From: Candidatus Methanoperedens sp.
Lineage (GTDB): Archaea; Halobacteriota; Methanosarcinia; Methanosarcinales; Methanoperedenaceae
Reading direction: 5' to 3'
DNA length: 32,000 nucleotides
NCBI GenBank assembly: GCA_027460535.1
Contig: JAPZAR010000030.1
Coordinates: forward strand, 1 to 32,000
Under the pieces are notes generated by a model. That model saw nothing but the letters and a program-made list of their open reading frames with translations. It had not been told where the DNA came from and searched no databases. Below are positions 16,221 through 29,989 of the stretch, in pieces (position 1 is the stretch's first letter; every line of letters starts with the position of its first letter). Position numbers and translations under genes: made by a program.

Positions 16221-16988
16221 TTGAGAAGTAAAATAACAGTCAGAAACATCTCAAACCTTCCTGTTAATTTCGATTATCAGTATGGTCTGGCATCAATGCT
16301 CTATTTCAAACTTGCCGGCGCGGATGTCAAGCTGGCTAACGAAACTCATGCTCATCAGGGATTCAAGTTCTATACATTCTCCAATCTTGTGTTGATGAAT
16401 AGAAAAACCTGTAAATCAGGTCTTTGTTTTGAGAGGGCATATTTTATCCTGTCCTCACCTGATGACAGATTCATCAAGAGTTTTACCGAAGGTCTTCTCC
16501 AACACTCAGAATTCTATTTAGATGGACCAGACGGCAGAGCAAATTTCGTAATTGAGCGCATCGAAATACTGAAAGAACCATCTTTAGGCGACGAGTGCTG
16601 GTTCAAGACCGTATCTCCAATCTATGTCAAGACCATGCGTAAAGAGAATGAAAGTTTGAAAGAGGTCGATCTCTATCCTACTGAGCCGAAGTTCTACGAG
16701 AACCTCCACAAGAACCTGACAGAACGCTTCACTGAATTTTATGGCAAAGCACCCCTTGATCATTTCGATGTAATTGAAACTGAGGGCATCAAGCCAAAGC
16801 GCATCAAAATATCAGAAGGCTATAGGCGATGCAATCTCATGAGTCTGCGAATCCAGGCAAGTCCTGAGCTTTTGAAGTTCGCTTACGATGCAGGGCTTGG
16901 GGAGAAGAATGCGATGGGGTTCGGATGTGTGGATGTTGTGGATCAGGGTCAACATATGAAAAATTTAACCGCAGATAAACGCAGATGA
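16221..16988 (+). CDS. cas6: Cas6 CRISPR repeat endoribonuclease
   Basis: 255 aa with a typical N-terminus (MRSKITVRN...) and the C-terminal glycine-rich loop GLGEKNAMGFGCVDVV. It holds the first position of a I-B operon. Confidence 0.9.
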   Translation: MRSKITVRNISNLPVNFDYQYGLASMLYFKLAGADVKLANETHAHQGFKFYTFSNLVLMNRKTCKSGLCFERAYFILSSPDDRFIKSFTEGLLQHSEFYLDGPDGRANFVIERIEILKEPSLGDECWFKTVSPIYVKTMRKENESLKEVDLYPTEPKFYENLHKNLTERFTEFYGKAPLDHFDVIETEGIKPKRIKISEGYRRCNLMSLRIQASPELLKFAYDAGLGEKNAMGFGCVDVVDQGQHMKNLTADKRR

Positions 16989-17110: not shown

Positions 17111-17557
17111 GTGTTGATGATGGTGGAGAAAAGAGGTGGAAAAGCAAAGAGCACAAAAATGTTGACAGTAGCATGCTCTATCTGCGGCATGGACATGGAC
17201 TGCCCGGAATCGATGCTGGGGGCGGAGCGGCATTTCTGCGCGCAATGTACTGATCTCATGGCTGAAGGCTATGAGCCTGAGGAACTGAAGATGAGCCCTG
17301 AGGATATAGCGCAGCATTTGCCCGGATGCGATGAGGTATCAATGCTGTTGATGGATCTTACCTTCGATGGCTACTGGAATAAAGTGCTGGAATACGGTAT
17401 AGAGCATTTTGATAATGAAAGGCTTGCGAAACAGAGCTATCTCCGGGGGGCAACTTCGATGCTGGGGCTTTTGATAAGTGCGGGGATGCCGCCGGAGTTT
17501 CTGGATGAACTGGCGGAGGGGATAAGGGGGGAGAGGAGGATGGGGGAGGGGAAGTGA
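17111..17557 (+). CDS. Uncharacterised Zn-ribbon protein encoded between cas6 and cas8
   Basis: 148-aa ORF with CSICG-x15-CAQC followed by a helical region. Its stop TGA (17555-17557) overlaps the cas8 start (GTGATGA). It is G+C-rich, unlike the downstream genes. Confidence 0.5.
   Translation: MLMMVEKRGGKAKSTKMLTVACSICGMDMDCPESMLGAERHFCAQCTDLMAEGYEPEELKMSPEDIAQHLPGCDEVSMLLMDLTFDGYWNKVLEYGIEHFDNERLAKQSYLRGATSMLGLLISAGMPPEFLDELAEGIRGERRMGEGK
17507..17556 (-). repeat. Inverted partial copy (E) of the G+C-rich element, embedded in the 3' end of the Zn-ribbon ORF
   Basis: The reverse complement CACTTCCCCTCCCCCATCCTCCTCTCCCCCCTTATCCCCTCCGCCAGTTC aligns with 22855-22899 (CACTCCCCCGCCCCCCATCCTCCCTCACCCCCGCGCCGCCAGTTC). 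About 38 positions match with a few indels. Confidence 0.7.
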
Positions 17558-18948
17558 TGAATAACGATATCGAAATGAGAAATGAATTTGTTGGGGATCC
17601 AATCGTTGATTCCGGTTTGCTCGCAATTAAATTATTGGGAAATAAAGAAATAAATGACTGTTCAAAAGAAGAATTAAAAAAGATTACAGATGAACTTATT
17701 GAGCTTTATCTAACACCTGCTTGGTCAAAAGATATTTTATCCATATTTCCAAATAGCACTTATGTTCAATATGCCAAGAATTATGATAGAGAAGGAAAGT
17801 CCAAAGAGTTTCTATATGAATTAATAGAAGGTTTAGATAAATCTGAAAATGATGGGGATTATTGTATTTTTTGTGGGAAACATGCATACAAGAGGAAAGA
17901 TAATAAACCTTTCGTCAAAACACAAATACCTTTAGTCGGTTCATCTGATTTTACTAATTTTTCCCCATCATTTAAAAATGGCATTGATATTTGTGCAAAA
18001 TGCGCTTTGGCAATTCAATTTGCACCTATTCTATTTTATAAAACTGGTGGAAAACCAAGTTGCATAAGCTGTAACAATACGGACGTTATGAAAACATTTG
18101 GAGAAGAATGTATAGGATATATTACTCAAAAAAAATTACTGGGTGGTTATAAATCCAAAGACGTTTCTGGCATATTTGATGAAGGTTTTAAATCAACACA
18201 AAATGCCTTGTTTCATTTAGCATATAAAACCTCTACAAAATATAAAAAGTTGGGACTTTTAAAACAAAACGAAGAAATTGTAATATATCGCGTTGATAAT
18301 TACAATCAAAATCCGGCCGGAGTTACAATACATAAAATACCGAATAATATATTCAGATTTGTTATCAATGTGATGACAAGTCCTCAATATAAAAAAAATT
18401 GGTATGATTTACTTTCAAAACATTATGCGAAATCTGATGCAAAAAGTGATTTTCCAGTCTGGAAAGTCAGTTATAATAGGATTCATGATTCTTTATTAAA
18501 AAATGAAAGCATATTATGGGCTTTCAGAGATGATAACGAAAAGAAACCAACATTACCATGGATTATAGTTGAGTCCTATATGGAGTTAGTGAGAAATATG
18601 AATAAACAGAGAATTGAGGGTATCAAAAATCTGGCTGATAAAATCGCCATCTGCATCGAAGAGAATAATAATAAAAAGAGAGTTAATGATATTATTTCAG
18701 CCAGAGATTTTCCAACTTTTAGAAATCAATTGAGATTAGTTTTCAGGGATTGGCAAAAATTAGGTAAGGAGCAACCTATGATAACTTATGAAGATTATAT
18801 CTCAGCAATCATCCCGGAAGATTATTCCAATTGGAAAGAAGTTCAGGATTTGATAATTATAAGGTTATACGAAAAATTGCATAATATGCTATCGAGTGGA
18901 GTAATTGATGATGTCGAACAAGAAAAATCAATAGGTGATGAAGAATGA
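17554..18948 (+). CDS. cas8b: Type I-B large subunit Cas8 (Cas8b/Cst1-like)
   Basis: 464 aa, positioned between cas6 and cas7, with a CIFCG...CAKCA zinc-finger pair as seen in Cst1/Cas8b-type proteins. It overlaps cas7 by 4 nt. Confidence 0.75.
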   Translation: MMNNDIEMRNEFVGDPIVDSGLLAIKLLGNKEINDCSKEELKKITDELIELYLTPAWSKDILSIFPNSTYVQYAKNYDREGKSKEFLYELIEGLDKSENDGDYCIFCGKHAYKRKDNKPFVKTQIPLVGSSDFTNFSPSFKNGIDICAKCALAIQFAPILFYKTGGKPSCISCNNTDVMKTFGEECIGYITQKKLLGGYKSKDVSGIFDEGFKSTQNALFHLAYKTSTKYKKLGLLKQNEEIVIYRVDNYNQNPAGVTIHKIPNNIFRFVINVMTSPQYKKNWYDLLSKHYAKSDAKSDFPVWKVSYNRIHDSLLKNESILWAFRDDNEKKPTLPWIIVESYMELVRNMNKQRIEGIKNLADKIAICIEENNNKKRVNDIISARDFPTFRNQLRLVFRDWQKLGKEQPMITYEDYISAIIPEDYSNWKEVQDLIIIRLYEKLHNMLSSGVIDDVEQEKSIGDEE

Positions 18949-19988
18949 AAACTATAATAGGAACTTACTTAATTGATGCGCCTTTTTCGGCGCTGAATAA
19001 TCGAGGAATAGATCAGGGAGCAGCGAACGAGAATGAAGTAGCAACCAAAGTAATTCAATCTCCAGAAGGAATGAGGCCATACGTTTCAGCACAAGCGTTA
19101 AGATACTGGTGGAGAATGGTTTTAGAAAATAAATTTGGATGGAAATGCTCACCTGTGGAAAAAATTGGAAAAAATCAAGCTGTTACTAAAGGTGATCCGC
19201 TGGAATACGATGATGATGATATTTTTGGGTATATGAGTGCCAGAAAAATTGATACGGGAGAGAAGGATAAAAGTGATAAGCCAAAGATGGAAAATGTAAC
19301 CGTGACAAGGGTATCTCCATTAAAATGCTCGCCTTTAATTGGATTTCCAATACGACCTACTTCAGATTTTGGTGTATTAGTGAGAAAACTTGAAACTGAT
19401 CCAATACTTTTTACTCATCAATTTTATAGCAATATCTTTAAAGGTATTTTTGCGCTGGATATTGATTCCGTAGGGAAATTCACAACAATTGATAAACCTG
19501 GTAGCAAAAACTTGTCAAAAGACCTTGCAGAAAAATATGAAAAAAATGGATTAAAAAAAGATGAAAAAACATATTCACTTCCGTTAGAAAAAAAGAAGAC
19601 GCGAATTTCTGATACCATTAAAGCCTTGAAGTTTTTGAATGGCGGGGCAATGCAGACATTGCATCATACTGATGTAACTCCCAAGTTAATTATGCTGGCA
19701 GTATTGAATAATGGAAATAACATATTCATGGATGTAATGCCTCACAATAAATACGATAATGGATTGGTCAATATCGATGCATTATCTGAGATGTTGGAGG
19801 ATTATAAGGAATCACTGTTGAGCAAAGTCTATATCGGTAAATTATCGGGTTTTGGATCAGATAAAGACAAAGAATTAGAGAGTTTCAAAGCACCATCGGG
19901 AGTTAATGTTGTAATTACGACTCCAGTTAAAGCAATAGATCAATTCATAGAGGAGATATTAACTAATAATAAAATTATTGGCGAGTAA
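18945..19988 (+). CDS. cas7: Cas7 backbone subunit (Cst2/DevR-like)
   Basis: The N-terminus GTYLIDAPFSALNNRG...YVSAQALRYWWR is typical of the Cas7 DevR/Cst2 family. Position in the operon fits. Confidence 0.85.
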   Translation: MKTIIGTYLIDAPFSALNNRGIDQGAANENEVATKVIQSPEGMRPYVSAQALRYWWRMVLENKFGWKCSPVEKIGKNQAVTKGDPLEYDDDDIFGYMSARKIDTGEKDKSDKPKMENVTVTRVSPLKCSPLIGFPIRPTSDFGVLVRKLETDPILFTHQFYSNIFKGIFALDIDSVGKFTTIDKPGSKNLSKDLAEKYEKNGLKKDEKTYSLPLEKKKTRISDTIKALKFLNGGAMQTLHHTDVTPKLIMLAVLNNGNNIFMDVMPHNKYDNGLVNIDALSEMLEDYKESLLSKVYIGKLSGFGSDKDKELESFKAPSGVNVVITTPVKAIDQFIEEILTNNKIIGE

Positions 19989-19989
19989 A

Positions 19990-20643
19990 ATGGAAGTTCT
20001 TCGTGTTGAAATACGGGCAATTACAGCCTCATTTAGATACCCCATGTTTGTGGTATCTTATCAGCCTACATATAAAATTCCTCCAATATCTACGATATAC
20101 GGTTTGCTCTCCGCTGCAAAGGGTGAAAAAGTCAGTATTTATGATTTATCCATTGGTTATGATTTTACATCTAGAGGAAGTGGCGTTGATCTGGAGCGCA
20201 TTCTGGAGTTCGGTGGAGGAGACAAAAATAAACCCGTTTCCTATCTTGGTAGCAATATAATACACAGGGAATTTTTATATGATTGTATATTGACATTATA
20301 TATATCTGATCTAGATTTTAAACAATATTTAGAGAATCCACGTTTCACTCTTTTACTTGGAAGGCAATCAGATTTAGCTAAGATAACAAAGATAAAAGAA
20401 GTGAAATTGATTCCAAAAGAAAATGTTGAAATATATAATACAATTATACCTTTCGATGGAAGAGTGCCAGGGCAAATCGTTGCTTTACCCTCTGATTATA
20501 CTGACAAAGCTGAAAGAAAACCAATTGAAGTAAGAACTTATTGTATCGTAGAATCAAAACAACAGATTGAAAGGGGATACTATGATACTGAGCTAAATAA
20601 GGGAGTTTTTATGCATGAGTTCAACAATAAAAGCCAAAAGTAA
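19990..20643 (+). CDS. cas5: Cas5 (Cas5t-like)
   Basis: MEVLRVEIRAITASFRYP...PPISTIYGLLSAAKG matches the Cas5 N-terminal signature. ATG 19990 lies 2 nt after the cas7 stop; the ORF track uses TTG 19978. Confidence 0.85.
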   Translation: MEVLRVEIRAITASFRYPMFVVSYQPTYKIPPISTIYGLLSAAKGEKVSIYDLSIGYDFTSRGSGVDLERILEFGGGDKNKPVSYLGSNIIHREFLYDCILTLYISDLDFKQYLENPRFTLLLGRQSDLAKITKIKEVKLIPKENVEIYNTIIPFDGRVPGQIVALPSDYTDKAERKPIEVRTYCIVESKQQIERGYYDTELNKGVFMHEFNNKSQK

Positions 20644-22795
20644 TGGCGAATCACTTGAAGAACATATAAATAATTGCCTTAATATTTTTGCTCAACTAAA
20701 GGATATTTATCCAGATTTACAAAAATTTACAAATTATCCTTCTTTTTATAGTGATGCTTTTGATGCTTTGTTTTTTCATGATTTTGGTAAAGCTGCAGAA
20801 GGTTTTCAAAAATCATTATCTCCAAAAGGAGAAAAATGGAAGTATAGGCATGAAATTCTTTCAACACCTTTTATTAACTGCCTGAACAAAGAAAATCTCG
20901 ATTTTGTCAAGATCTTAGTGCTAACTCACCATAAAGATATTAATAAATTAGTCGAATATATTGAAGATAATGATTTTTTGGGGATTCGTTATGAAGAACG
21001 ATTAGAGGAAATCAAACCTAATATAAATGCACTGAATGAAATAATAAAGAAATATCCAGAAATCTCTAAAAAGATATTAGGCTCAATAGAATGCAAGGTC
21101 GATATTATAGAGAAAATATCAAAAGATAAGTCGATATGGGAGGAAATAATACAAAAGAAAAGAATGAACTTTTCATCAAAAATAGGAATCTTTGGAAAAG
21201 GGATGATAAATTCTTGTGATTATTTAGCTTCAAGTGGGATAAAAAAGATACTTAAACCACTACCAAGCTTGAGTGAAGTATATAATTTTAAGTCCTTTAC
21301 GAGTGTTCAGGCAAAATGTTTATCAACAAAAGGTAATGCGATAATTATTTCACCAACTGGTTCTGGAAAAACGGAAGCATCTCTGTTCTGGGCTACAAAT
21401 AATCTCGATAAATCACAAGGAAATAGAATATTTTATGTTTTACCCTACACTGCGAGTATAAACGCAATGTATAGGCGATTATTGATGAAATTAAGCCCAT
21501 ATTATTCAGATGATGGTTGTGTATCGCTATTACATGGAAAAGCGACTTATTTTTTATATAAGATGTTCGAGGATGGTGATTTTAGAGAAATACATAATTT
21601 ATCTAAAAAAATTTATAGTCCATACAAAGTAATGACGCCTTTTCAATGTTTAAAACACTTCTTTTCATTGAAAGGATATGAGATGGGATTATTAGAAATG
21701 TACCGCGGGAGATATATTTTTGATGAGATACACTCCTATGATGCCAAAACAGCGGGATTGATATTATCAATGTGCGAGTATTTGATAGAAGAGAATGATG
21801 CTAAGATATTGATAATGTCTGCAACGATGCCATCATTTCTGAAAAATATGTTTTTAGATAATCTTCATATTGAAAATGAAATGGTTATGGATAAAAAAGA
21901 GTTGAGCAAATACCTTCGCCACAAATGCAAGATAATCGATGGAGATATCCTTGAAAATATTGATTTAATAATAAAAAGATTGCAGAATAAAGAAAAAGTA
22001 TTGGTTGTGTGTAATACAGTAAATAGAGCCCAGGATGTTTATAAATTATTGAGAGATGAAGTTAACGACTCTGCTTTGTTGCATGGCAGATTTATCTTGA
22101 AAGATAGAGAAGCAATTGAAAAAAATCTTGAAAATCTGAATTTATTAGTGGGTACACAAGTCATTGAAGTTTCATTGGATATCGATTATGATGTATGTTT
22201 CTCTGAACCAGCTCCAATTGATGCTTTAATTCAGCGATTTGGAAGAATTAACAGACGAAAAAACAGCGATGGATTACCACTCAAAGGCATTTGCGATGTA
22301 TTTGTTTTTTCAAAAGGTTCTGAAAATGATCGATATATCTATGATACAGAGATTGTAAATAAAACTTTAAAAGTTCTCAATGAAATTGATTTATTGTTTG
22401 AAGATAAATTATATGAAGCAGTCGATGAAATATACATTAATGGTTTTGGCGATAAACTAAAAGAATTTGAAGATACCAAAACTTCATTTAGAAAAATGAT
22501 AGATCGTATAGTACCTTTCAATAATTCAAACACAAAAGAATCAGACTTTTATGATTTATTTAATTCCATAGAAGCGGTTCCTGAAAAATATCGGCATGAA
22601 TATCTTGATTGTATCCGAAATAAAAAGTTATTCGATGCTATGCAATATTGTCTGCAATTAACGAACGGTCAATTTCAAAAACTACTCAAAGAAGGACGGG
22701 TTGATTTCGAAAAAAAGATTTTTATAGAGGCAAAGTATGATCCAGAATTGGGATTATTGATAAATGAACATGAAGAGAATCAAAATATAATATAA
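20615..22795 (+). CDS. cas3: Cas3 HD nuclease-helicase fusion
   Basis: HD domain (HDFGKA, HHKD), Walker A SPTGSGKTEA, DEIH box (FDEIHSYD) and SATMP are all present in this 726-aa protein. Confidence 0.95.
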   Translation: MSSTIKAKSNGESLEEHINNCLNIFAQLKDIYPDLQKFTNYPSFYSDAFDALFFHDFGKAAEGFQKSLSPKGEKWKYRHEILSTPFINCLNKENLDFVKILVLTHHKDINKLVEYIEDNDFLGIRYEERLEEIKPNINALNEIIKKYPEISKKILGSIECKVDIIEKISKDKSIWEEIIQKKRMNFSSKIGIFGKGMINSCDYLASSGIKKILKPLPSLSEVYNFKSFTSVQAKCLSTKGNAIIISPTGSGKTEASLFWATNNLDKSQGNRIFYVLPYTASINAMYRRLLMKLSPYYSDDGCVSLLHGKATYFLYKMFEDGDFREIHNLSKKIYSPYKVMTPFQCLKHFFSLKGYEMGLLEMYRGRYIFDEIHSYDAKTAGLILSMCEYLIEENDAKILIMSATMPSFLKNMFLDNLHIENEMVMDKKELSKYLRHKCKIIDGDILENIDLIIKRLQNKEKVLVVCNTVNRAQDVYKLLRDEVNDSALLHGRFILKDREAIEKNLENLNLLVGTQVIEVSLDIDYDVCFSEPAPIDALIQRFGRINRRKNSDGLPLKGICDVFVFSKGSENDRYIYDTEIVNKTLKVLNEIDLLFEDKLYEAVDEIYINGFGDKLKEFEDTKTSFRKMIDRIVPFNNSNTKESDFYDLFNSIEAVPEKYRHEYLDCIRNKKLFDAMQYCLQLTNGQFQKLLKEGRVDFEKKIFIEAKYDPELGLLINEHEENQNII

Positions 22796-22854: not shown

Positions 22855-23170
22855 CACTCCCCCGCCCCCCATCCTCCCTCACCCCCGCGCCGCCAGTTCT
22901 TTGCGGACTCTGCGCCCTTTGCGGTGATGCCTCCTGATTCTTGCATGGCACCGCATGGAAAAACATCCTAGCAAATGCGATATATCCCATGCAATAAATC
23001 CGCGTTCATAAACCGGAACTTCGGTTTACGCAGTGTTGGGGTATGCGAAGCATATCCCTCGTTTGATAAAACTTTCATAAAGTTTTGCGTCCATCTGCGG
23101 TTTCGTTTTTCGCAGAAGCGCCGGAAATTTATCGCATTCTGTTTATAAAATTTCACCTCAAAGACTGTAA
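22855..23170 (+). repeat. Unit 1 (copy B) of a tandem, degenerate ~325-340-bp non-coding unit
   Basis: Blocks shared with unit 2, in the same order: G+C-rich head, TTTGCGGACTCTGCGC-N-CTTTGCGGTG, CCTGATTC-TGCA, TGCGATATAT, TGCAATAAATC-GCGTT, ATCTGCGG-TTCGTTTTTCG, GAAGCGCC-GAAATTTATC. Confidence 0.75.
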
Positions 23171-23470
23171 GGAGCCCGCCCTCCTGCACGTTCTTCCCCG
23201 ACCCGCCGATACGCGCTCACTTCCGCGCCGCCTGCTCTTTGCGGACTCTGCGCGCTTTGCGGTGGTGCTCCCTGATTCGTGCACAGCGCCGCAGAAAAAA
23301 ACAGTCTGAAGAGTGCGATATATGCCCTTGCAATAAATCTGCGTTAATCTGTGAAATCTGCGGATTCGTTTTTCGGAGAGTGATTAACCATTGTTCTCTG
23401 GAATATTTTTTGCGTTTTTGTGGTTGCTCCGGTCTCCATGAAGCGCCAGAAATTTATCTGGTGCTATATA
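23171..23470 (+). repeat. Unit 2 (copy C) of the tandem non-coding unit
   Basis: Same ordered blocks as unit 1. The core starts at 23238 versus 22900 in unit 1, and the last block starts at 23440 versus 23115. Confidence 0.75.
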
Positions 23471-23581
23471 TATAATTCTTTCTAAAAATTTATTGAAGCA
23501 CAGTAAAATTTTGTGATAAGGCGTCTGAGGTTGTTTTGATCCATAACAATGCTTATATAAGACAATATCAAACTATAATAT

Positions 23582-23812
23582 ATGGCTGAATTGAAAGTTA
23601 CCATTCCTGAAGAACTCTGGAGAAAAATGGCAAGCTTTGAAATAGACTGGCATGCGATCACCAGAGATCTTCTCAAAAAGAAAGTCAATGAACTGAGTGA
23701 TTTGAAATCCATTGTTTCCAAAAGCAAGATGACCGACGAGGATGCGTTAGAGCTTGGTAGAAAGGTTAATAAATCACTTGCAAAAAAATTCAAAACTTCA
23801 GCGATGGGATAA
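23582..23812 (+). CDS. Putative antitoxin partner of the PIN protein (VapB-type)
   Basis: 76-aa ORF whose stop (23810-23812) directly abuts the ATG of the PIN gene. Size and position are typical of antitoxins. Confidence 0.55.
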   Translation: MAELKVTIPEELWRKMASFEIDWHAITRDLLKKKVNELSDLKSIVSKSKMTDEDALELGRKVNKSLAKKFKTSAMG

Positions 23813-24235
23813 ATGCTCCTCATTGTTGATGCCAACGTTGTTTTTTCGGTTCTCATAAAAGGTGGGAAAACATTAGACATTTTTTTTTTGAATAAAGCTA
23901 AAAAAAGATTTGATTTTGTAGCTCCTGAATTTCTTATGGTGGAAGTTGAAAAACACACCAGTGAGATTATTAAGAAAACTGGACTTTCAACAGAAGAGAT
24001 TGGAAAGGTGTTTGATTTTCTTGAAAAAGAAATTGAATTTGTTTCATTTGAAGAGTTTGAAGAATTCTATAAAGAAGCAGAGCAAATATCTCCTGATCCC
24101 AATGATGTTCAGTATTTTGCGCTTGCTATGAAATTAAATGGGGCTATTTGGTCTAATGACAAGGCATTAAAAAAGCAGTTTGTAGTTGATGTGCTATCTA
24201 CAGGGGAAATAATAAAATTAATGGAATTTGAATAG
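23813..24235 (+). CDS. PIN-domain ribonuclease toxin (VapC-like)
   Basis: The sequence MLLIVDANVV..., ...EVEKH..., DPNDVQYFALA and WSNDK supplies the conserved acidic residues of PIN domains. 140 aa. Confidence 0.8.
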   Translation: MLLIVDANVVFSVLIKGGKTLDIFFLNKAKKRFDFVAPEFLMVEVEKHTSEIIKKTGLSTEEIGKVFDFLEKEIEFVSFEEFEEFYKEAEQISPDPNDVQYFALAMKLNGAIWSNDKALKKQFVVDVLSTGEIIKLMEFE

Positions 24236-24256: not shown

Positions 24257-24353
24257 ATCCCCCGCTCCCCATCCTCCCTCACCCCCGCGCCGCCAGCTCT
24301 TTGCGGACTCTGCGCCCTCTGCGGTGGGTACGATTCGTACCAATCTGTGCAAG
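24257..24353 (+). repeat. Copy D of the G+C-rich element
   Basis: 24257-24325 is identical to 22858-22926 at 66 of 69 positions (hand alignment). It is followed by the hairpin GGTACG-ATT-CGTACC. Confidence 0.85.
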
Positions 24354-24409
24354 GACAAAGAGTCATCTAAAAAGATGAACCCAACCGTATATTTCATTCA
24401 TCCCAAACC

Positions 24410-24439
24410 TTTATAAATTCAAAAATGAATAAATTCATT
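24410..24439 (+). promoter_or_regulatory. Candidate promoter and operator of the wHTH-NTase/cas4-cas1-cas2 operon
   Basis: TTTATAAA (24410-24417) is followed by the perfect palindrome AATGAAT-AA-ATTCATT (24424-24439), about 20 nt before ATG 24459. Confidence 0.4.
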
Positions 24440-24458
24440 CAAAAATGGTTATATAACT

Positions 24459-25058
24459 ATGAAATTCCACAATGTTCTTGACGAGATATTAGGCAATAGA
24501 ACAAAGGTGAAGCTGCTAAGGGCATTTTTCACCTATCTTGAAAAAGAATTCACAGAAAGCGAACTCCAGAGGATAGCGGGGATACCGCAGGCGAGCGTTC
24601 ACAGGAACGTAAAGTTTCTCCTCGCGAATGGACTTCTTGACAGGGAACGCATCGGAAAGGCAAATCTGTATTCGCTGAACAAAGAGCATATTCTTTATGC
24701 TCTTCTACAGAACATTTTTGAGAATGAAAAAAACCTTCTCTCTGAACTTAAAAAGTCGCTTAAAGGTTCGATTGAAAGCTTTTCTGGGATAGAGTTAGCA
24801 GTACTCTTCGGAAGCGTTTTAAAAGGCACTGAGAGAGCGGACAGCGATATAGATATTTTCATCGTCTGTAAAGCAGATAAATCACAGGTGGAAGAAGAGA
24901 TGAAAAACCTGATCCAGGTTATCGGAAATAAATTCGGAAACCCGGTATCGCCGATGATAAAGAATGATACAGAGATGAAAGACATAAGAAGCAGTTCAAT
25001 ATACAAAGAATTAAAAAGAGGTGAAGTACTCTTTAAGCGCGAGGGATTTGAATGGTGA
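24459..25058 (+). CDS. Winged-HTH / minimal nucleotidyltransferase (MNT-like) fusion protein
   Basis: The N-terminus ESELQRIAGIPQASVHRNVKFLLANGLLDRERIGKANLYSLN is wHTH-like. The C-terminus LFGSVLKGTERADSDIDIFIV carries the GS-x9-11-DxD nucleotidyltransferase motif. Confidence 0.75.
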   Translation: MKFHNVLDEILGNRTKVKLLRAFFTYLEKEFTESELQRIAGIPQASVHRNVKFLLANGLLDRERIGKANLYSLNKEHILYALLQNIFENEKNLLSELKKSLKGSIESFSGIELAVLFGSVLKGTERADSDIDIFIVCKADKSQVEEEMKNLIQVIGNKFGNPVSPMIKNDTEMKDIRSSSIYKELKRGEVLFKREGFEW

Positions 25059-25147
25059 AAGGTCTATCAACAAAACCTGCACAGGAAATGTTCAGGGATG
25101 CAGAACGTCTAGTGGAATGGGTTGAAAATAGGAACATGGTGGCATGA
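25052..25147 (+). CDS. 31-aa micro-ORF bridging the NTase gene and cas4 (possible HEPN remnant)
   Basis: It encodes [31 protein letters not shown]. Its ATG (25052-25054) overlaps the upstream gene's final codons before the TGA (25056-25058), and its TGA (25145-25147) overlaps the cas4 ATG (25144-25146). Confidence 0.3.
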   Translation: MVKGLSTKPAQEMFRDAERLVEWVENRNMVA

Positions 25148-25710
25148 ATCCGCAAGATGTAACTTTGGAAGAAAAAGAAAGACCCCAACCTGAAGACATC
25201 ATGGCCGGTGCCATGCGCATCACAGGCATTAAAGTAACATACTACTTCATCTGCCATACCAAACTCTGGCTGTTTTCGCACAATATCACGCTTGAGAAAG
25301 AGAATGACAATGTGAATATTGGAAAACTCCTGCATGAAGACCGCTATAAGCGCGACTCAAAAGAGATAACAATCGACCAGACGATAAGCATCGATTTCAT
25401 CCGGAAGGGTGATACCATTGTTCTCCATGAAATAAAAAAAACAAAAAGCATGGAAGTGGCACATCGCTGGCAGATGCTATATTACCTGTATTACCTGAAA
25501 TCAAAAGGTATCAGCGCCACAGGCGAAATAAATTATCCCCTCGTTAGCAGGAAAGAAGAGATAGTGCTTCTTGAAAAAGATGAATTGGAAATGGAAAATG
25601 TGATAAATGATATCAGGAAGATCGCAATGGGAAGGATGCCGCAACCTAAAAGGATAAAGATCTGCCCGAAATGCGCTTATTTCGAATTCTGTTTTGGAGA
25701 TGAAGTATGA
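25144..25710 (+). CDS. cas4: Cas4 RecB-like exonuclease with a 4Fe-4S cluster
   Basis: 188 aa with an N-terminal Cys ([10 protein letters not shown]) and a C-terminal [10 protein letters not shown] cluster. It has a 4-nt overlap with cas1. Confidence 0.9.
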
Positions 25711-26696
25711 AGGAAGATTATTATATCACACAGGACGGCGGCCTTACAAGGCATGAAAATACGGTATATTTCGAGAACGAAAACACAAAACGCGCCCTTC
25801 CGGTAAATAAGATATACTCAATATACGCATACGGCAGGCTCAGCTTTTCATCCGGGGTCGTGGATTATCTTGCAAAGAGCGGGATACCGATACACTTCTT
25901 TAATTATTATGGTTTTTACGAAGGCTCATTCTATCCGCGCGAAACGCTGATAAGCGGCGATCTGACCGTGAAGCAGGCATCGAATTATCTCGACAGCGCA
26001 AAGAGACTGATACTTGCAAAATCCTTTGTTGAAGGCGCTTGCGGCAATATCCTGAAAAATCTCAACTATTACGCGCGGGAGATGAAAAGTCTTGAAACAC
26101 ATATCAGCGGCATCGAATCCGAGATCGCGAGACTGCCGGGGACAGCAACTATCCCTGAGGTCATGAATGTAGAAGGACGGATAAGGAATATTTATTATAC
26201 GGCGCTTGATGAGATATTCCCTGAGAATTACAGGATAATCAAAAGGTCAAGGATGCCGCCGGCGAACAGGATGAACACGTTAATCAGTTTCGGGAATTCC
26301 CTGATGTACACAACAACTCTTTCGGAAATATACAATACCCAGTTAAACCCCACTATTTCTTTCCTTCATGAGCCATTTGAAAGGAGATTCTCGCTTGCTC
26401 TTGATGTAAGCGAGATATTCAAACCCATAATTATCGACAGGATCATCCTGAAGCTTGTGAATAAGAACATGCTTGACGATGCTTGTTTCAGGGGGGAGAT
26501 AGGAGATATGCTGCTCAGTGAAAAAGGGAAAAAGCTGTTCCTGGCAGAATATAATGAGAAGCTTTCCACAACTATCAAACACAGAGGACTGGAACAAAAT
26601 GTTTCTTTCAAACGGCTTATAAGACTTGAATTGTATAAACTCGTGAAGCATTGCCTTGGTGAAAAGGATTACAAACCTCTCATTATGTGGTGGTAA
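25707..26696 (+). CDS. cas1: Cas1 integrase
   Basis: 329 aa. [14 protein letters not shown]...[10 protein letters not shown]...[12 protein letters not shown] are typical Cas1 motifs. Confidence 0.95.
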
Positions 26697-26962
26697 TCTT
26701 GTATGTAATAATTGTTTATGATGTGGGGGTGGAAAGGGTGAACAAGGTGAGGATTTACCTCAAGCAGTATCTTAATTGGGTGCAGAATAGTGTGCTGGAA
26801 GGGGAGCTTACAGAACCTGAATACATGAAGATAATGAATGGGCTCAGGGATGTAATAGATGAATCCCAGGATAATGTTATCTGTTATAAATCGAGAGATC
26901 GGAAGTATCTCGCTATTGATGAAATAGGAACTAAAAAGGCTGAGATCACAACAATAATCTGA
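26687..26962 (+). CDS. cas2: Cas2
   Basis: 91 aa. [38 protein letters not shown] is the classic Cas2 N-terminus. It overlaps the cas1 end. Confidence 0.9.
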
Positions 26963-27157: not shown

Positions 27158-29989
27158 GTTAAAATCAGCCCTTGGAGGGATTGAAATCCTGGAGGAAATG
27201 CTCTTGCCTAAATCTGTTATAAAGTTAAAATCAGCCCTTGGAGGGATTGAAATACGTAGATGTACCCGGTGTTCGCGTCAAGGTTTGTCAGTTAAAATCA
27301 GCCCTTGGAGGGATTGAAATACTATATACGTGCATACATACATAGATATGTATGCTGGTTAAAATCAGCCCTTGGAGGGATTGAAATTATTCTGCTCCTC
27401 AGGCGATGCCGCCTTCCTTGAGGTTAAAATCAGCCCTTGGAGGGATTGAAATGGCGGTGATCGTATGAAATGCATCCACGCGATATATCGTTAAAATCAG
27501 CCCTTGGAGGGATTGAAATATGATATGGTGCCTTGTGCGCGAGGGCAGCCTCCTTGGTTAAAATCAGCCCTTGGAGGGATTGAAATGACTCTCCGGCGCT
27601 GAGCCTTTGGCTGCTGTATCACGTTAAAATCAGCCCTTGGAGGGATTGAAATTACTGAGATCGTGAAGCTGCGAACGCCCCTGGGGAGCGTTAAAATCAG
27701 CCCTTGGAGGGATTGAAATGTGTGAGCCCGAACTTTTCCGAGGTCAGTTCCGCCAGTTAAAATCAGCCCTTGGAGGGATTGAAATCGTGGTACCACGTGC
27801 TCCCCTCAACCCCATAGCGTGCGTTAAAATCAGCCCTTGGAGGGATTGAAATACGGAACGAACACGCACAAAATCCGTCGTGGCGTTATGTTAAAATCAG
27901 CCCTTGGAGGGATTGAAATAAGGCAAAACGCTCGAACAGGATCACCTTCATGGACGGTTAAAATCAGCCCTTGGAGGGATTGAAATCTGCGTATGCAGTG
28001 CGTTTCCGATCTTGTTCACGCGTTGTTAAAATCAGCCCTTGGAGGGATTGAAATTCTCTATGATCCTTATGATCGGGGGTTCATACTACCAGTTAAAATC
28101 AGCCCTTGGAGGGATTGAAATTTAAGACTATGTCGTCTTTTGAGCAGATCGGTAAGAAGTTAAAATCAGCCCTTGGAGGGATTGAAATATATCTGTTTTT
28201 TCAGATATAGAAATTTTGAAATATTGTTAAAATCAGCCCTTGGAGGGATTGAAATATCATAATTATTATGTTTTGAGAGTAGATCATAAGGAGTTAAAAT
28301 CAGCCCTTGGAGGGATTGAAATGTCTCAGCACAGACGACAAGCAACCAGACCTACACGAGTTAAAATCAGCCCTTGGAGGGATTGAAATAGCGATGTAAA
28401 GAACATCCAGGGAGCGCACTTCAAATGTTAAAATCAGCCCTTGGAGGGATTGAAATACGCCTAGGCTTTCCTTGCCTCTTCCCTGACTTCTTGTTAAAAT
28501 CAGCCCTTGGAGGGATTGAAATTCACTTGTAGCCCTTGAGGAAGTTGAGCGTATCGAGGTTAAAATCAGCCCTTGGAGGGATTGAAATCAATAAGAACCT
28601 CCTCTACCCTTGGTTGTTATTTCATGTTAAAATCAGCCCTTGGAGGGATTGAAATAGCAAACAACGATACCGAGCAGCCCGGGTAATTCTCGTTAAAATC
28701 AGCCCTTGGAGGGATTGAAATATTCGCCCTCGCTCTCGGTCATGGTTCCCTATAAAACGTTAAAATCAGCCCTTGGAGGGATTGAAATGAAGTGGACGAG
28801 TGCGGATGGAATTGAAGTCACCATGGTTAAAATCAGCCCTTGGAGGGATTGAAATCATCAACTTGCACCTCACACTTAAGATAATGCTCAATGTTAAAAT
28901 CAGCCCTTGGAGGGATTGAAATAAGGAATGGAGATGAAGATTTCTGCAGGCATACAAGTTAAAATCAGCCCTTGGAGGGATTGAAATACGGTTTGATGAG
29001 CTTCTTGATAAAATACAGAACCAAGTTAAAATCAGCCCTTGGAGGGATTGAAATATGCAAGGTGCTGCTACAACTGCGAACCGTGTGAATCGTTAAAATC
29101 AGCCCTTGGAGGGATTGAAATTTATAACTACTTCGACGTTCCCGCTTGCTGTGCTGAGTTAAAATCAGCCCTTGGAGGGATTGAAATCTTGATACTTCCT
29201 GATTGGTGAAGTTCGCCCATCCGTGTTAAAATCAGCCCTTGGAGGGATTGAAATGGGTCTTTAGCAAGCTACCTGAGTATGTGCAAAAGAATGTTAAAAT
29301 CAGCCCTTGGAGGGATTGAAATATTAATCAAGCAAACCGTTCAAGGAGGAAGGCTTCGGTTAAAATCAGCCCTTGGAGGGATTGAAATATTTCGACTGCT
29401 CCATTTGCAAATATCACGAGCGTGGTTAAAATCAGCCCTTGGAGGGATTGAAATGACAATAGTGACATACAACACAAACGGAATTGCAGGTGTTAAAATC
29501 AGCCCTTGGAGGGATTGAAATATAGCGAATCGAGGCACGACACCAAGTCCGTGCGGAAGTTAAAATCAGCCCTTGGAGGGATTGAAATAGATTAGTTAAA
29601 CTAACTAACGGCTCTGTATATGATGTTAAAATCAGCCCTTGGAGGGATTGAAATATGTAACCAAAAAAGAACCAGATGAAATAATCCCGGCGTTAAAATC
29701 AGCCCTTGGAGGGATTGAAATCAATGATATCATAGGGATGTTGTTATATTAATCCCTTGTTAAAATCAGCCCTTGGAGGGATTGAAATCGAATACCTGGA
29801 AACATGCCGTCATGCCCGGACGAGGGTTAAAATCAGCCCTTGGAGGGATTGAAATGTGATCAAGGCGCTCCCGGACCTCAATGCCCTGGTCGGTTAAAAT
29901 CAGCCCTTGGAGGGATTGAAATGCAGACGTAATCTTAGCTGGGGCAAGTATCCCACTTAGTTAAAATCAGCCCTTGGAGGGATTGAAAT
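27158..29989 (+). CRISPR. CRISPR array: 43 identical 30-nt repeats GTTAAAATCAGCCCTTGGAGGGATTGAAAT and 42 spacers of 35-38 nt
   Basis: Every repeat start was located by hand from 27158 to 29960, with periods of 65-68 nt. The repeat ends in ATTGAAAT (the expected 8-nt 5' handle) and contains the CCCT-TGG-AGGG mini-hairpin. Confidence 0.98.

Follow-up and report, generated by a model that had tools for sequence, protein, structure and literature searches.

We analysed a 32,000-nt stretch of DNA from Candidatus Methanoperedens sp. (contig JAPZAR010000030.1 of assembly GCA_027460535.1, positions 1 to 32,000), hereafter the window, in which NCBIfam and Pfam models recognise a type I-B CRISPR-Cas locus. 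The 2.3 kb between its cas3 and cas4 genes end in the element studied here (24400-25147; Table 1): a promoter region, a 199-aa protein that joins a winged helix-turn-helix (wHTH) to a minimal nucleotidyltransferase (MNT), and a 31-aa open reading frame (ORF). The frames form a chain with cas4. The 31-aa ORF begins (ATG at 25052) within the final codons of the 199-aa ORF, in GAATGGTGA, giving an ATGGTGA overlap, and its TGA (25145-25147) overlaps the cas4 ATG (25144-25146) in ATGA. An initial annotation of this DNA had described a TATA-like box, a perfect 7-2-7 palindrome, both ORFs and the chained overlaps, all of which are present, and had proposed a DNA-binding enzyme heading the adaptation operon. 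Our analysis leads to a different reading: the element is very probably the remnant of an MNT-HEPN toxin-antitoxin (TA) cassette, mobile and originally of two genes, which was later fused to cas4 and had most of its toxin gene deleted.

The wHTH-MNT protein and the 31-aa ORF

The 199-aa protein, which contains FGSVLKGTERADSDIDIF, carries the nucleotidyltransferase motif G118-S119...D128-S-D130-I-D132, and the Pfam models Polbeta (41.8 bits, cutoff 26.9) and NTP_transf_2 (37.2 bits, cutoff 21) both pass their thresholds in its C-terminal half. Both defining features of an MNT, the Pol-beta fold and the motif hG[GS]x9-13Dh[DE]h, are present; the residues GS...DxD are invariant in 14 homologues, and the window copy keeps all family-invariant residues. 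By sequence, the HTH stays below the Pfam threshold (HTH_20, 22.9 bits vs 27). An AlphaFold2 model built on 14 homologues (mean predicted local distance difference test score, pLDDT, 86.5; predicted template modelling score, pTM, 0.75) has a winged HTH at residues 3-73, joined through a long helix (80-106) to a nucleotidyltransferase core of alpha/beta type. Foldseek searches of the PDB matched the C-terminal half best to the MNT antitoxins 8xeo/8xeh (TM-score 0.73, normalised to the target) and further to 7ae9 and to Shewanella MntA (7aer, 6m6u, 7bxo), and the N-terminal half to wHTH structures of ArsR/SqrR, MarR and TrmBL2; sequence searches of the PDB with the protein gave marginal matches only. 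Pfam, the model and Foldseek thus bear out the combination of a winged HTH with an MNT-type nucleotidyltransferase that had been proposed for this gene.

The PADLOC model PDC-M05A matched the protein over both domains (E 2.7e-26), residues 7-174 aligning with positions 6-167 of the 201 in the model. The wHTH-MNT architecture is common: among 1.84 billion representatives searched, 485 clusters (50% identity) were found at E<=1e-10, and the best 150 of the 485 are nearly all about 200 aa long and aligned almost end to end. The wHTH region (window 24459-24870, residues 10-138) also weakly matches the wHTH part of the PADLOC Csa3 model PDLC01438 (E 6.7e-7, model positions 144-267 of 305), and a weak match to the CARF3--CARF model falls on the HTH region. 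No CARF domain was found in the protein with Pfam or PADLOC, and no AbiEi or AbiEii model of these collections matched it. We read the protein as an MntA-like antitoxin and presumed repressor of a MNT-HEPN (PDC-M05-type) cassette.

As no family in Pfam, NCBIfam or PADLOC matched the 31-aa ORF, its identity comes from comparison with related loci only. We assembled 56 of these, 46 from genome and metagenome collections and 10 by exact look-ups, and cite them by number (L001 and so on); all of the nearest homologues belong to Candidatus Methanoperedens and its relatives. Most relatives that extend past the wHTH-MNT gene have a 135-138-aa HEPN gene starting at the same ATGGTRA overlap. Its product matches Pfam HEPN (PF05168; E 7e-9, 36.2 bits vs cutoff 22, positions 4-116 of 117), a family also given by the precomputed annotation of L047-L052, and in the alignment of relatives R64-H-x-G-x-D-H70 (Rx5H) hardly varies and the tyrosine of AEYED, Y106, is conserved. 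The 31-aa ORF corresponds to the first 10 codons (MVKGLSTKPA) plus the last 21 codons of the 137-aa HEPN gene. Alignment to L001, L005, L020 and L021 places a deletion of exactly 318 nt (106 codons, in frame, relative to L021) between two GCA codons with 3 nt of microhomology, its junction falling within GCA 25079-25081, before CAGGAAATG at 25082. Both the Rx5H motif (R64-x5-H70) and Y106 were removed, and downstream of the MNT the window holds no HEPN gene with Rx4-6H, only the remnant, in which the conserved C-terminal helix AQEMxxDAxRLVEWVE is retained. On this comparison the 31-aa ORF is an in-frame deletion relic of a HEPN toxin gene, as the initial annotation had suspected; it is not conserved as a micro-ORF, relatives mostly carrying the full gene.

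An independent metagenome contig, L019 (94.8% nucleotide identity), shares the junction, and its 31-aa ORF departs from that of the window at a single residue. In L021, L047, L048 and L049 (wHTH-MNT 88-90% identical) an intact HEPN gene runs into cas4 with the same ATGA overlap, so the cassette lay beside cas4 first and the toxin deletion came later. The toxin has also decayed independently beside an intact wHTH-MNT gene: L002 has a different in-frame deletion (114 aa), L005, L033 and L039 have HEPN frameshifts, L034 has a truncated HEPN gene and L012 has none. Such recurrent decay of the toxin with retention of the antitoxin is the pattern expected for a TA pair. Degenerate copies of the wHTH-MNT gene itself occur in L018, L041 and L044. 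We examined the ratio of non-synonymous to synonymous substitution rates (dN/dS) for signs that selection had relaxed once the toxin was lost. Between the window and L019 the ratio for the wHTH-MNT gene is 0.38, from 13 synonymous and 20 non-synonymous differences, a total of only 33 and too few to decide. No other comparison of similar or greater divergence gives so high a ratio (the remainder 0.12-0.29); the sole higher value, 0.78, belongs to the near-identical pair L020/L022 with 12 differences.

The cassette promoter and its conserved boxes

Upstream of the wHTH-MNT gene we identified a B recognition element and TATA box (BRE/TATA, aAAcCTTTATAA; TATA TTTATAAA at 24410-24417) and a directly repeated 14-nt box whose copies are 20 nt apart (ATTCAAAAATGAAT at 24417-24430 and ATTCAAAAATGGTT at 24437-24450); the direct repeat was found independently as D5. 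Each box is internally a dyad, ATTCA-N4-TGAAT, and both lie between TATA and the start codon, the usual position of an archaeal repressor. This promoter/operator is common to all 41 related loci having sequence upstream of the wHTH-MNT gene, and nucleotide homology to every related locus starts at about 24400-24405, whatever the upstream flank. The consensus of 38 distinct upstream regions, aAA.cTTTAT..ATTCAAAAATGAATaAaTT.ATTCAAAAATG.a.AgaT.a..ATG, has TATA and both boxes conserved above 90%. Of 39 distinct promoters, 37 carry box 1 unchanged, and the conservation of the boxes persists across lineages in which synonymous sites of the wHTH-MNT gene are saturated (dS ~1.4 between the window and L005). 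This conservation across homologues makes an autoregulatory operator adjoining TATA plausible, and we infer that the wHTH binds the two boxes.

The initial annotation had also considered an autoregulator, acting through the palindrome AATGAAT-AA-ATTCATT. Autoregulation close to TATA remains plausible in the form just given; the palindrome as its element does not hold up. It is perfect in only seven of the 39 distinct homologous promoters, and its only G:C pair (24427/24436) is unconserved, position 24436 being the one variable column (G 20, C 12, T 5, A 2). Perfect 7-2-7 palindromes number four in the window vs 2.6 in shuffles, which is not beyond chance. We therefore rejected the palindrome as operator in favour of the two direct boxes. 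When the box was sought across the window as a sign of a wider regulon, for example at other cas promoters and in the array leader, only chance-level matches with two mismatches were found.

Genomic distribution and the cas3-cas4 gap

Thirty-nine of the 46 collection loci were informative, with at least 250 nt downstream of the cassette. Only four of the 39 have cas4 downstream (L001, L005, L019 and L021), and 35 have no cas gene nearby; the promoter/operator is identical in such non-cas contexts. The 227 neighbour proteins fall into 169 clusters, none present in more than four loci and only one of them Cas1. They are mostly housekeeping, restriction-modification or other TA genes, and include serine hydroxymethyltransferase, glutamate synthase, ThiC, Lys-tRNA synthetase, type I restriction-modification methylases, AbiEi, PIN proteins and a UvrD helicase. 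Sequence conservation extends from about 55 nt before the wHTH-MNT ATG to near the HEPN stop codon. Adaptation modules closely similar to that of the window also occur without the cassette: L053 and L054 encode a Cas1 96% identical to the window's and have neither cassette nor boxes, and L055 and L056, with the same cas3 type and a Cas1 87.5% identical, have no cassette. The distribution is patchy and independent of context, as in a mobile module, and homologues do not lie consistently beside cas genes. A survey of homologues for linkage to cas4 and cas1, which the initial annotation had named as a check, accordingly showed no enrichment next to adaptation genes and speaks against an enzyme or accessory tied to spacer acquisition.

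In the close relatives L020, L022, L050 and L052 (wHTH-MNT 86-89% identical) a ParA-family ATPase gene lies near the cassette, accompanied by a small gene of 112-132 aa (L020 6181-7354, L022 1531-2704, L050 8477-9650, L052 1498-2674). In L020, L022 and L052 these genes follow the cassette immediately, in L050 after about 2.9 kb. Together they look like a partition locus, so these copies may reside on plasmids or other extrachromosomal elements of Methanoperedens. Distantly related second wHTH-nucleotidyltransferase paralogues (about 26% identical) occur within a few kb of the cassette in L052 (4055-4585, minus strand) and L017 (321-731, minus strand).

What fills the cas3-cas4 gap differs from locus to locus (L053 1956-3980, L054 2298-3768, L047 4146-4783, L005 4448-5731). 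L053 and L054 hold other small TA-like pairs (DUF3368/UPF0175, a 187+65-aa pair, a PIN pair, MJ0235), and across these gaps we found DUF3368/UPF0175, PIN, TumE/MJ0235, AF2212-like and 187+64/65-aa pairs, the larger protein of the last carrying a nucleotidyltransferase-like GRSRGTEDVDII motif. The gap in the window contains a second TA-like pair, a PIN_2 protein preceded by a 76-aa ORF without a family match. These contents suggest that the cas3-cas4 gap of this Methanoperedens CRISPR lineage is an insertion hot spot, or landing pad, for TA modules. In L055/L056 (356-4000) this gap, and not the stretch after cas2, houses a CRISPR leader and presumably also the array.

A GC-rich element, with core CCCCATCCTCCCTCACCCCCGCGCCGCCAGCTCTTTGCGGACTCTGCGCC and set in AT-rich DNA, is repeated three times between cas3 and the cassette (22865-22988, 23203-23326 and 24265-24388), with companion repeats at 22986-23152 and 23325-23477. 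The first two copies belong to a tandem unit of about 340 nt, and the copies bracket the PIN pair. Fragments of the repeat also occur in L001, L005, L054 and L055. It has no Rfam match and could be similar to a miniature inverted-repeat transposable element (MITE).

The fusion appears to have cost cas4 its own promoter. In L005, L054 and L055 the cas4 ATG is preceded, at a distance of 20-60 nt, by an AT-rich block that resembles a promoter (AACATTATTAATATATGNATTGATAATATGAAT); this block is absent in the window, L001 and L047, where HEPN coding sequence reaches the cas4 ATG. No TATA-like motif was found between 24819 and cas4 in the window. Since the block is lost and no such motif lies near cas4, cas4-cas1-cas2 are probably transcribed from the cassette promoter and would then share any regulation of it by the wHTH-MNT protein.

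Table 1. Features of the window around the cassette and the type I-B CRISPR-Cas locus
Feature	Position	Strand	Evidence or remark
cas6	16221-16988		
148-aa ORF	17111-17557		between cas6 and cas8b, overlaps cas8b start
cas8b	17554-18948		
cas7	18945-19988		
cas5	19978-20643		
cas3	20615-22795		
76-aa ORF (second TA-like pair)	23582-23812		
140-aa PIN_2 protein (second TA-like pair)	23813-24235		Pfam PIN_2, E 1.4e-24
Cassette promoter/operator	24400-24458	+	consensus of related upstream regions
7-2-7 palindrome	24424-24439		right arm of box 1 plus lead-in to box 2
wHTH-MNT gene (199 aa)	24459-25058	+	Pfam, PADLOC, AlphaFold2/Foldseek
31-aa ORF, relic of HEPN toxin gene	25052-25147	+	comparison with related loci
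cas4	25144-25710	+	Pfam Cas_Cas4, E 8e-56
cas1	25707-26696	+	Pfam Cas_Cas1, E 8e-85
cas2	26687-26962	+	Pfam CRISPR_Cas2, E 9e-20
CRISPR array	27158-29989	+	43 identical 30-nt repeats, GTTAAAATCAGCCCTTGGAGGGATTGAAAT

The remainder of the locus is listed in Table 1. The array of 43 repeats indicates that the adaptation module was active at some point in the lineage of the window. The 148-aa ORF before cas8b matched nothing in Pfam or NCBIfam. The chromosomal flanks carry ordinary genes (a P-type ATPase, an Na/H exchanger, PspA and a tRNA, the last being the only match of an Rfam scan of the window). Elsewhere, a nearly identical block of cassette and cas4-cas1-cas2 is joined to different interference modules (L047 1-3888 and L005 1321-4005, vs 17554-22795 in the window): L047 has a Cas1 96.7% identical, Cas5d-type genes and an 834-aa Cas3 only 24% identical, and L005 an 894-aa Cas3 about 30% identical, which points to module shuffling. 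In the closest genome locus, L001 (2883-4152), the match to cas4 breaks off with residue 169 at the point where that to cas1 sets in, with residue 78; a deletion has fused and damaged the two genes.

Known relatives, rival explanations and meaning

MNT-HEPN modules are abundant, mobile TA modules of archaea (PMC2701414, PMC3710099, PMC3632139), and the accounts given in PMC7641770 and PMC3710099 have the toxicity of the HEPN RNase neutralised by MNT through AMPylation of a tyrosine. A 2026 survey (PMC12988326) describes PDC-M05 as a nucleotidyltransferase with a HEPN protein, TA-like, 59% of its instances archaeal and its antiviral role so far undemonstrated. The 199-aa protein matches M05A over both domains and intact relatives have the same two-gene form, whereas the window copy has lost 106 of 137 HEPN codons and the HEPN proteins of close relatives have no PADLOC match. 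The window copy is thus a degenerate MNT-HEPN member of a wHTH-fused form already catalogued as the PADLOC candidate PDC-M05, so that the arrangement is not, as had been supposed, undescribed.

With the type VII HepT/MntA systems (S. oneidensis SO_3165/3166, Aphanizomenon flos-aquae, Legionella HEPN-MNT) the cassette shares the order MNT then HEPN with overlapping genes, the MNT GSx(n)DxD motif, a closest fold among the MNT antitoxins of solved complexes and, in intact relatives, the HEPN Rx4-6H with a conserved tyrosine. It differs in a fused N-terminal wHTH of about 75 aa: the S. oneidensis MNT antitoxin SO_3165 binds and represses its own promoter and has no recognisable DNA-binding domain (PMC4621449). 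Two other families were considered and rejected. Like Csa3, which combines CARF with a wHTH, the protein carries a wHTH, weakly similar in sequence, heads cas4-cas1-cas2 and probably controls their promoter; unlike Csa3 it has an MNT instead of CARF, its gene and operator are found mostly away from cas genes, and its linkage to them is a lineage-specific insertion. AbiE (AbiEi wHTH antitoxin with AbiEii nucleotidyltransferase toxin, type IV TA) likewise combines a wHTH and a Pol-beta-type nucleotidyltransferase in a two-gene mobile module, but there the domains sit on separate proteins and the nucleotidyltransferase is the toxin; the cassette matches neither AbiE model, and its partner is HEPN.

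An intact cassette comprises its own promoter with two ATTCAAAAATGAAT boxes, the 199-aa wHTH-MNT protein and an overlapping 135-138-aa HEPN protein (Rx5H). By analogy with the characterised HepT/MntA systems, the HEPN protein would act as an RNase toxin, the MNT would neutralise it by AMPylating the conserved tyrosine (Y106 in AEYED), and the two boxes would serve the wHTH in repressing the cassette promoter. On our reading, such a cassette inserted between cas3 and cas4, where sister loci have other TA pairs. A deletion in the sub-lineage of the window then fused it to the start of cas4, removing the AT-rich promoter-like block, and a later 318-nt in-frame deletion between two GCA codons took out 106 toxin codons, leaving the 31-aa ORF. 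The chain of overlapping frames is accordingly a historical by-product of insertion and deletions, and cas4-cas1-cas2 would today depend on the cassette promoter, repressed by an orphan wHTH-MNT protein.

Several observations weigh against this reading. The HEPN protein belongs to PF05168 (HEPN-T) and not to the HepT/DUF86 family of the biochemical studies; in close relatives it has no PADLOC match, PDC-M05B included, and neither it nor its profile gave more than marginal matches against the PDB, with no sequence match to a solved structure. The NCBIfam model MntA_antitoxin (NF047752) scores 35.8 bits over residues 110-163 only, below its curated cutoff of 60, and by this measure the 199-aa protein is a relative of MntA but no equivalog. 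HEPN toxicity, AMPylation and DNA binding are predicted roles in the wHTH-MNT/HEPN family, drawn from analogy. In the cas-linked sub-lineage the association is long-lived, given the dS of ~1.4 between the window and L005, and in L047 the cassette accompanies the adaptation module beside a different effector module; the linkage could be maintained by selection rather than accident. Finally, the dN/dS of the wHTH-MNT gene fits purifying selection after toxin loss and hence a retained function, without specifying which.

A first rival explanation is that the wHTH-nucleotidyltransferase is a dedicated adaptation accessory (regulator, signalling or modifying enzyme) selected for co-translation with Cas4-Cas1-Cas2. 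The tight overlaps, the cassette-cas4 fusion in L001, L019, L021 and L047-L049, the linkage in L005 across a large divergence and the weak similarity of the wHTH to Csa3 would suit it. We nevertheless regard it as very unlikely and largely refuted by the context survey: most informative loci have no cas gene nearby, the promoter/operator is the same in those settings, adaptation modules with a 96% identical Cas1 do without the cassette, and the partner gene is of HEPN toxin type, not a cas gene, with no CARF domain in the protein. A functional 31-aa protein, either an MNT-binding peptide or a translational coupler delivering ribosomes to cas4, is about as improbable. The in-frame deletion preserves both overlaps, the ORF is kept with a single amino-acid difference in two independent samples, and the C-terminal helix survives; yet an in-frame outcome is a 1-in-3 chance, both copies go back to a single recent event, such a micro-ORF is absent from homologues elsewhere and has no family match, and cas4 has its own Shine-Dalgarno-like motif, GGTGG, directly 5' of its start. 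That the deletion is an assembly artefact has a negligible probability, as the junction CCTGCA|CAGGAAATG recurs in the independent contig L019, which differs at about 5% of positions.

An inert, decaying remnant is the somewhat better, though still unlikely, alternative; the wHTH-MNT protein would no longer do anything, and cas4-cas1-cas2 would owe their expression to transcripts running on from cas3 or the PIN pair, or to a cryptic internal promoter. With the toxin gone the antitoxin has no primary role, the dN/dS between the two deletion-bearing copies is the highest but for L020/L022, and wHTH-MNT genes have degenerated in L018, L041 and L044. Set against this, the wHTH-MNT ORF is intact, family-invariant residues including GS...DxD are kept, dN/dS lies well below 1, and promoter and boxes are intact with no other TATA-like motif near cas4. 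The intact ORF, the kept residues and the dN/dS of 0.38 fit a retained role without proving one. A specific form of such a role, which we put forward tentatively and hold to be possible rather than probable, is that the adaptation operon, having lost its own promoter, was captured by the TA cassette, and that the orphan wHTH-MNT protein was kept as a repressor of cas4-cas1-cas2 and may also, as a nucleotidyltransferase, have acquired a new target.

If that were true, spacer acquisition in this lineage would be governed by the control logic of a former TA module. The reading of the element as a decaying MNT-HEPN cassette guards against over-interpretation, because a tight chain of frames at the head of a cas operon can be a common mobile TA cassette in mid-decay. 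For the PDC-M05-type family it brings out an unusually well-defined operator, two ATTCAAAAATGAAT boxes 20 nt apart beside TATA, in proteins that carry a wHTH, unlike the MNT antitoxins studied so far, which lack a recognisable DNA-binding domain. Specialist interest may lie in this operator of an archaeal family and in what looks like the capture of an adaptation operon by the promoter of a TA cassette, which in one lineage seems to have supplanted the native promoter of cas4, a natural example of how selfish modules may rewire the expression of adaptation genes.

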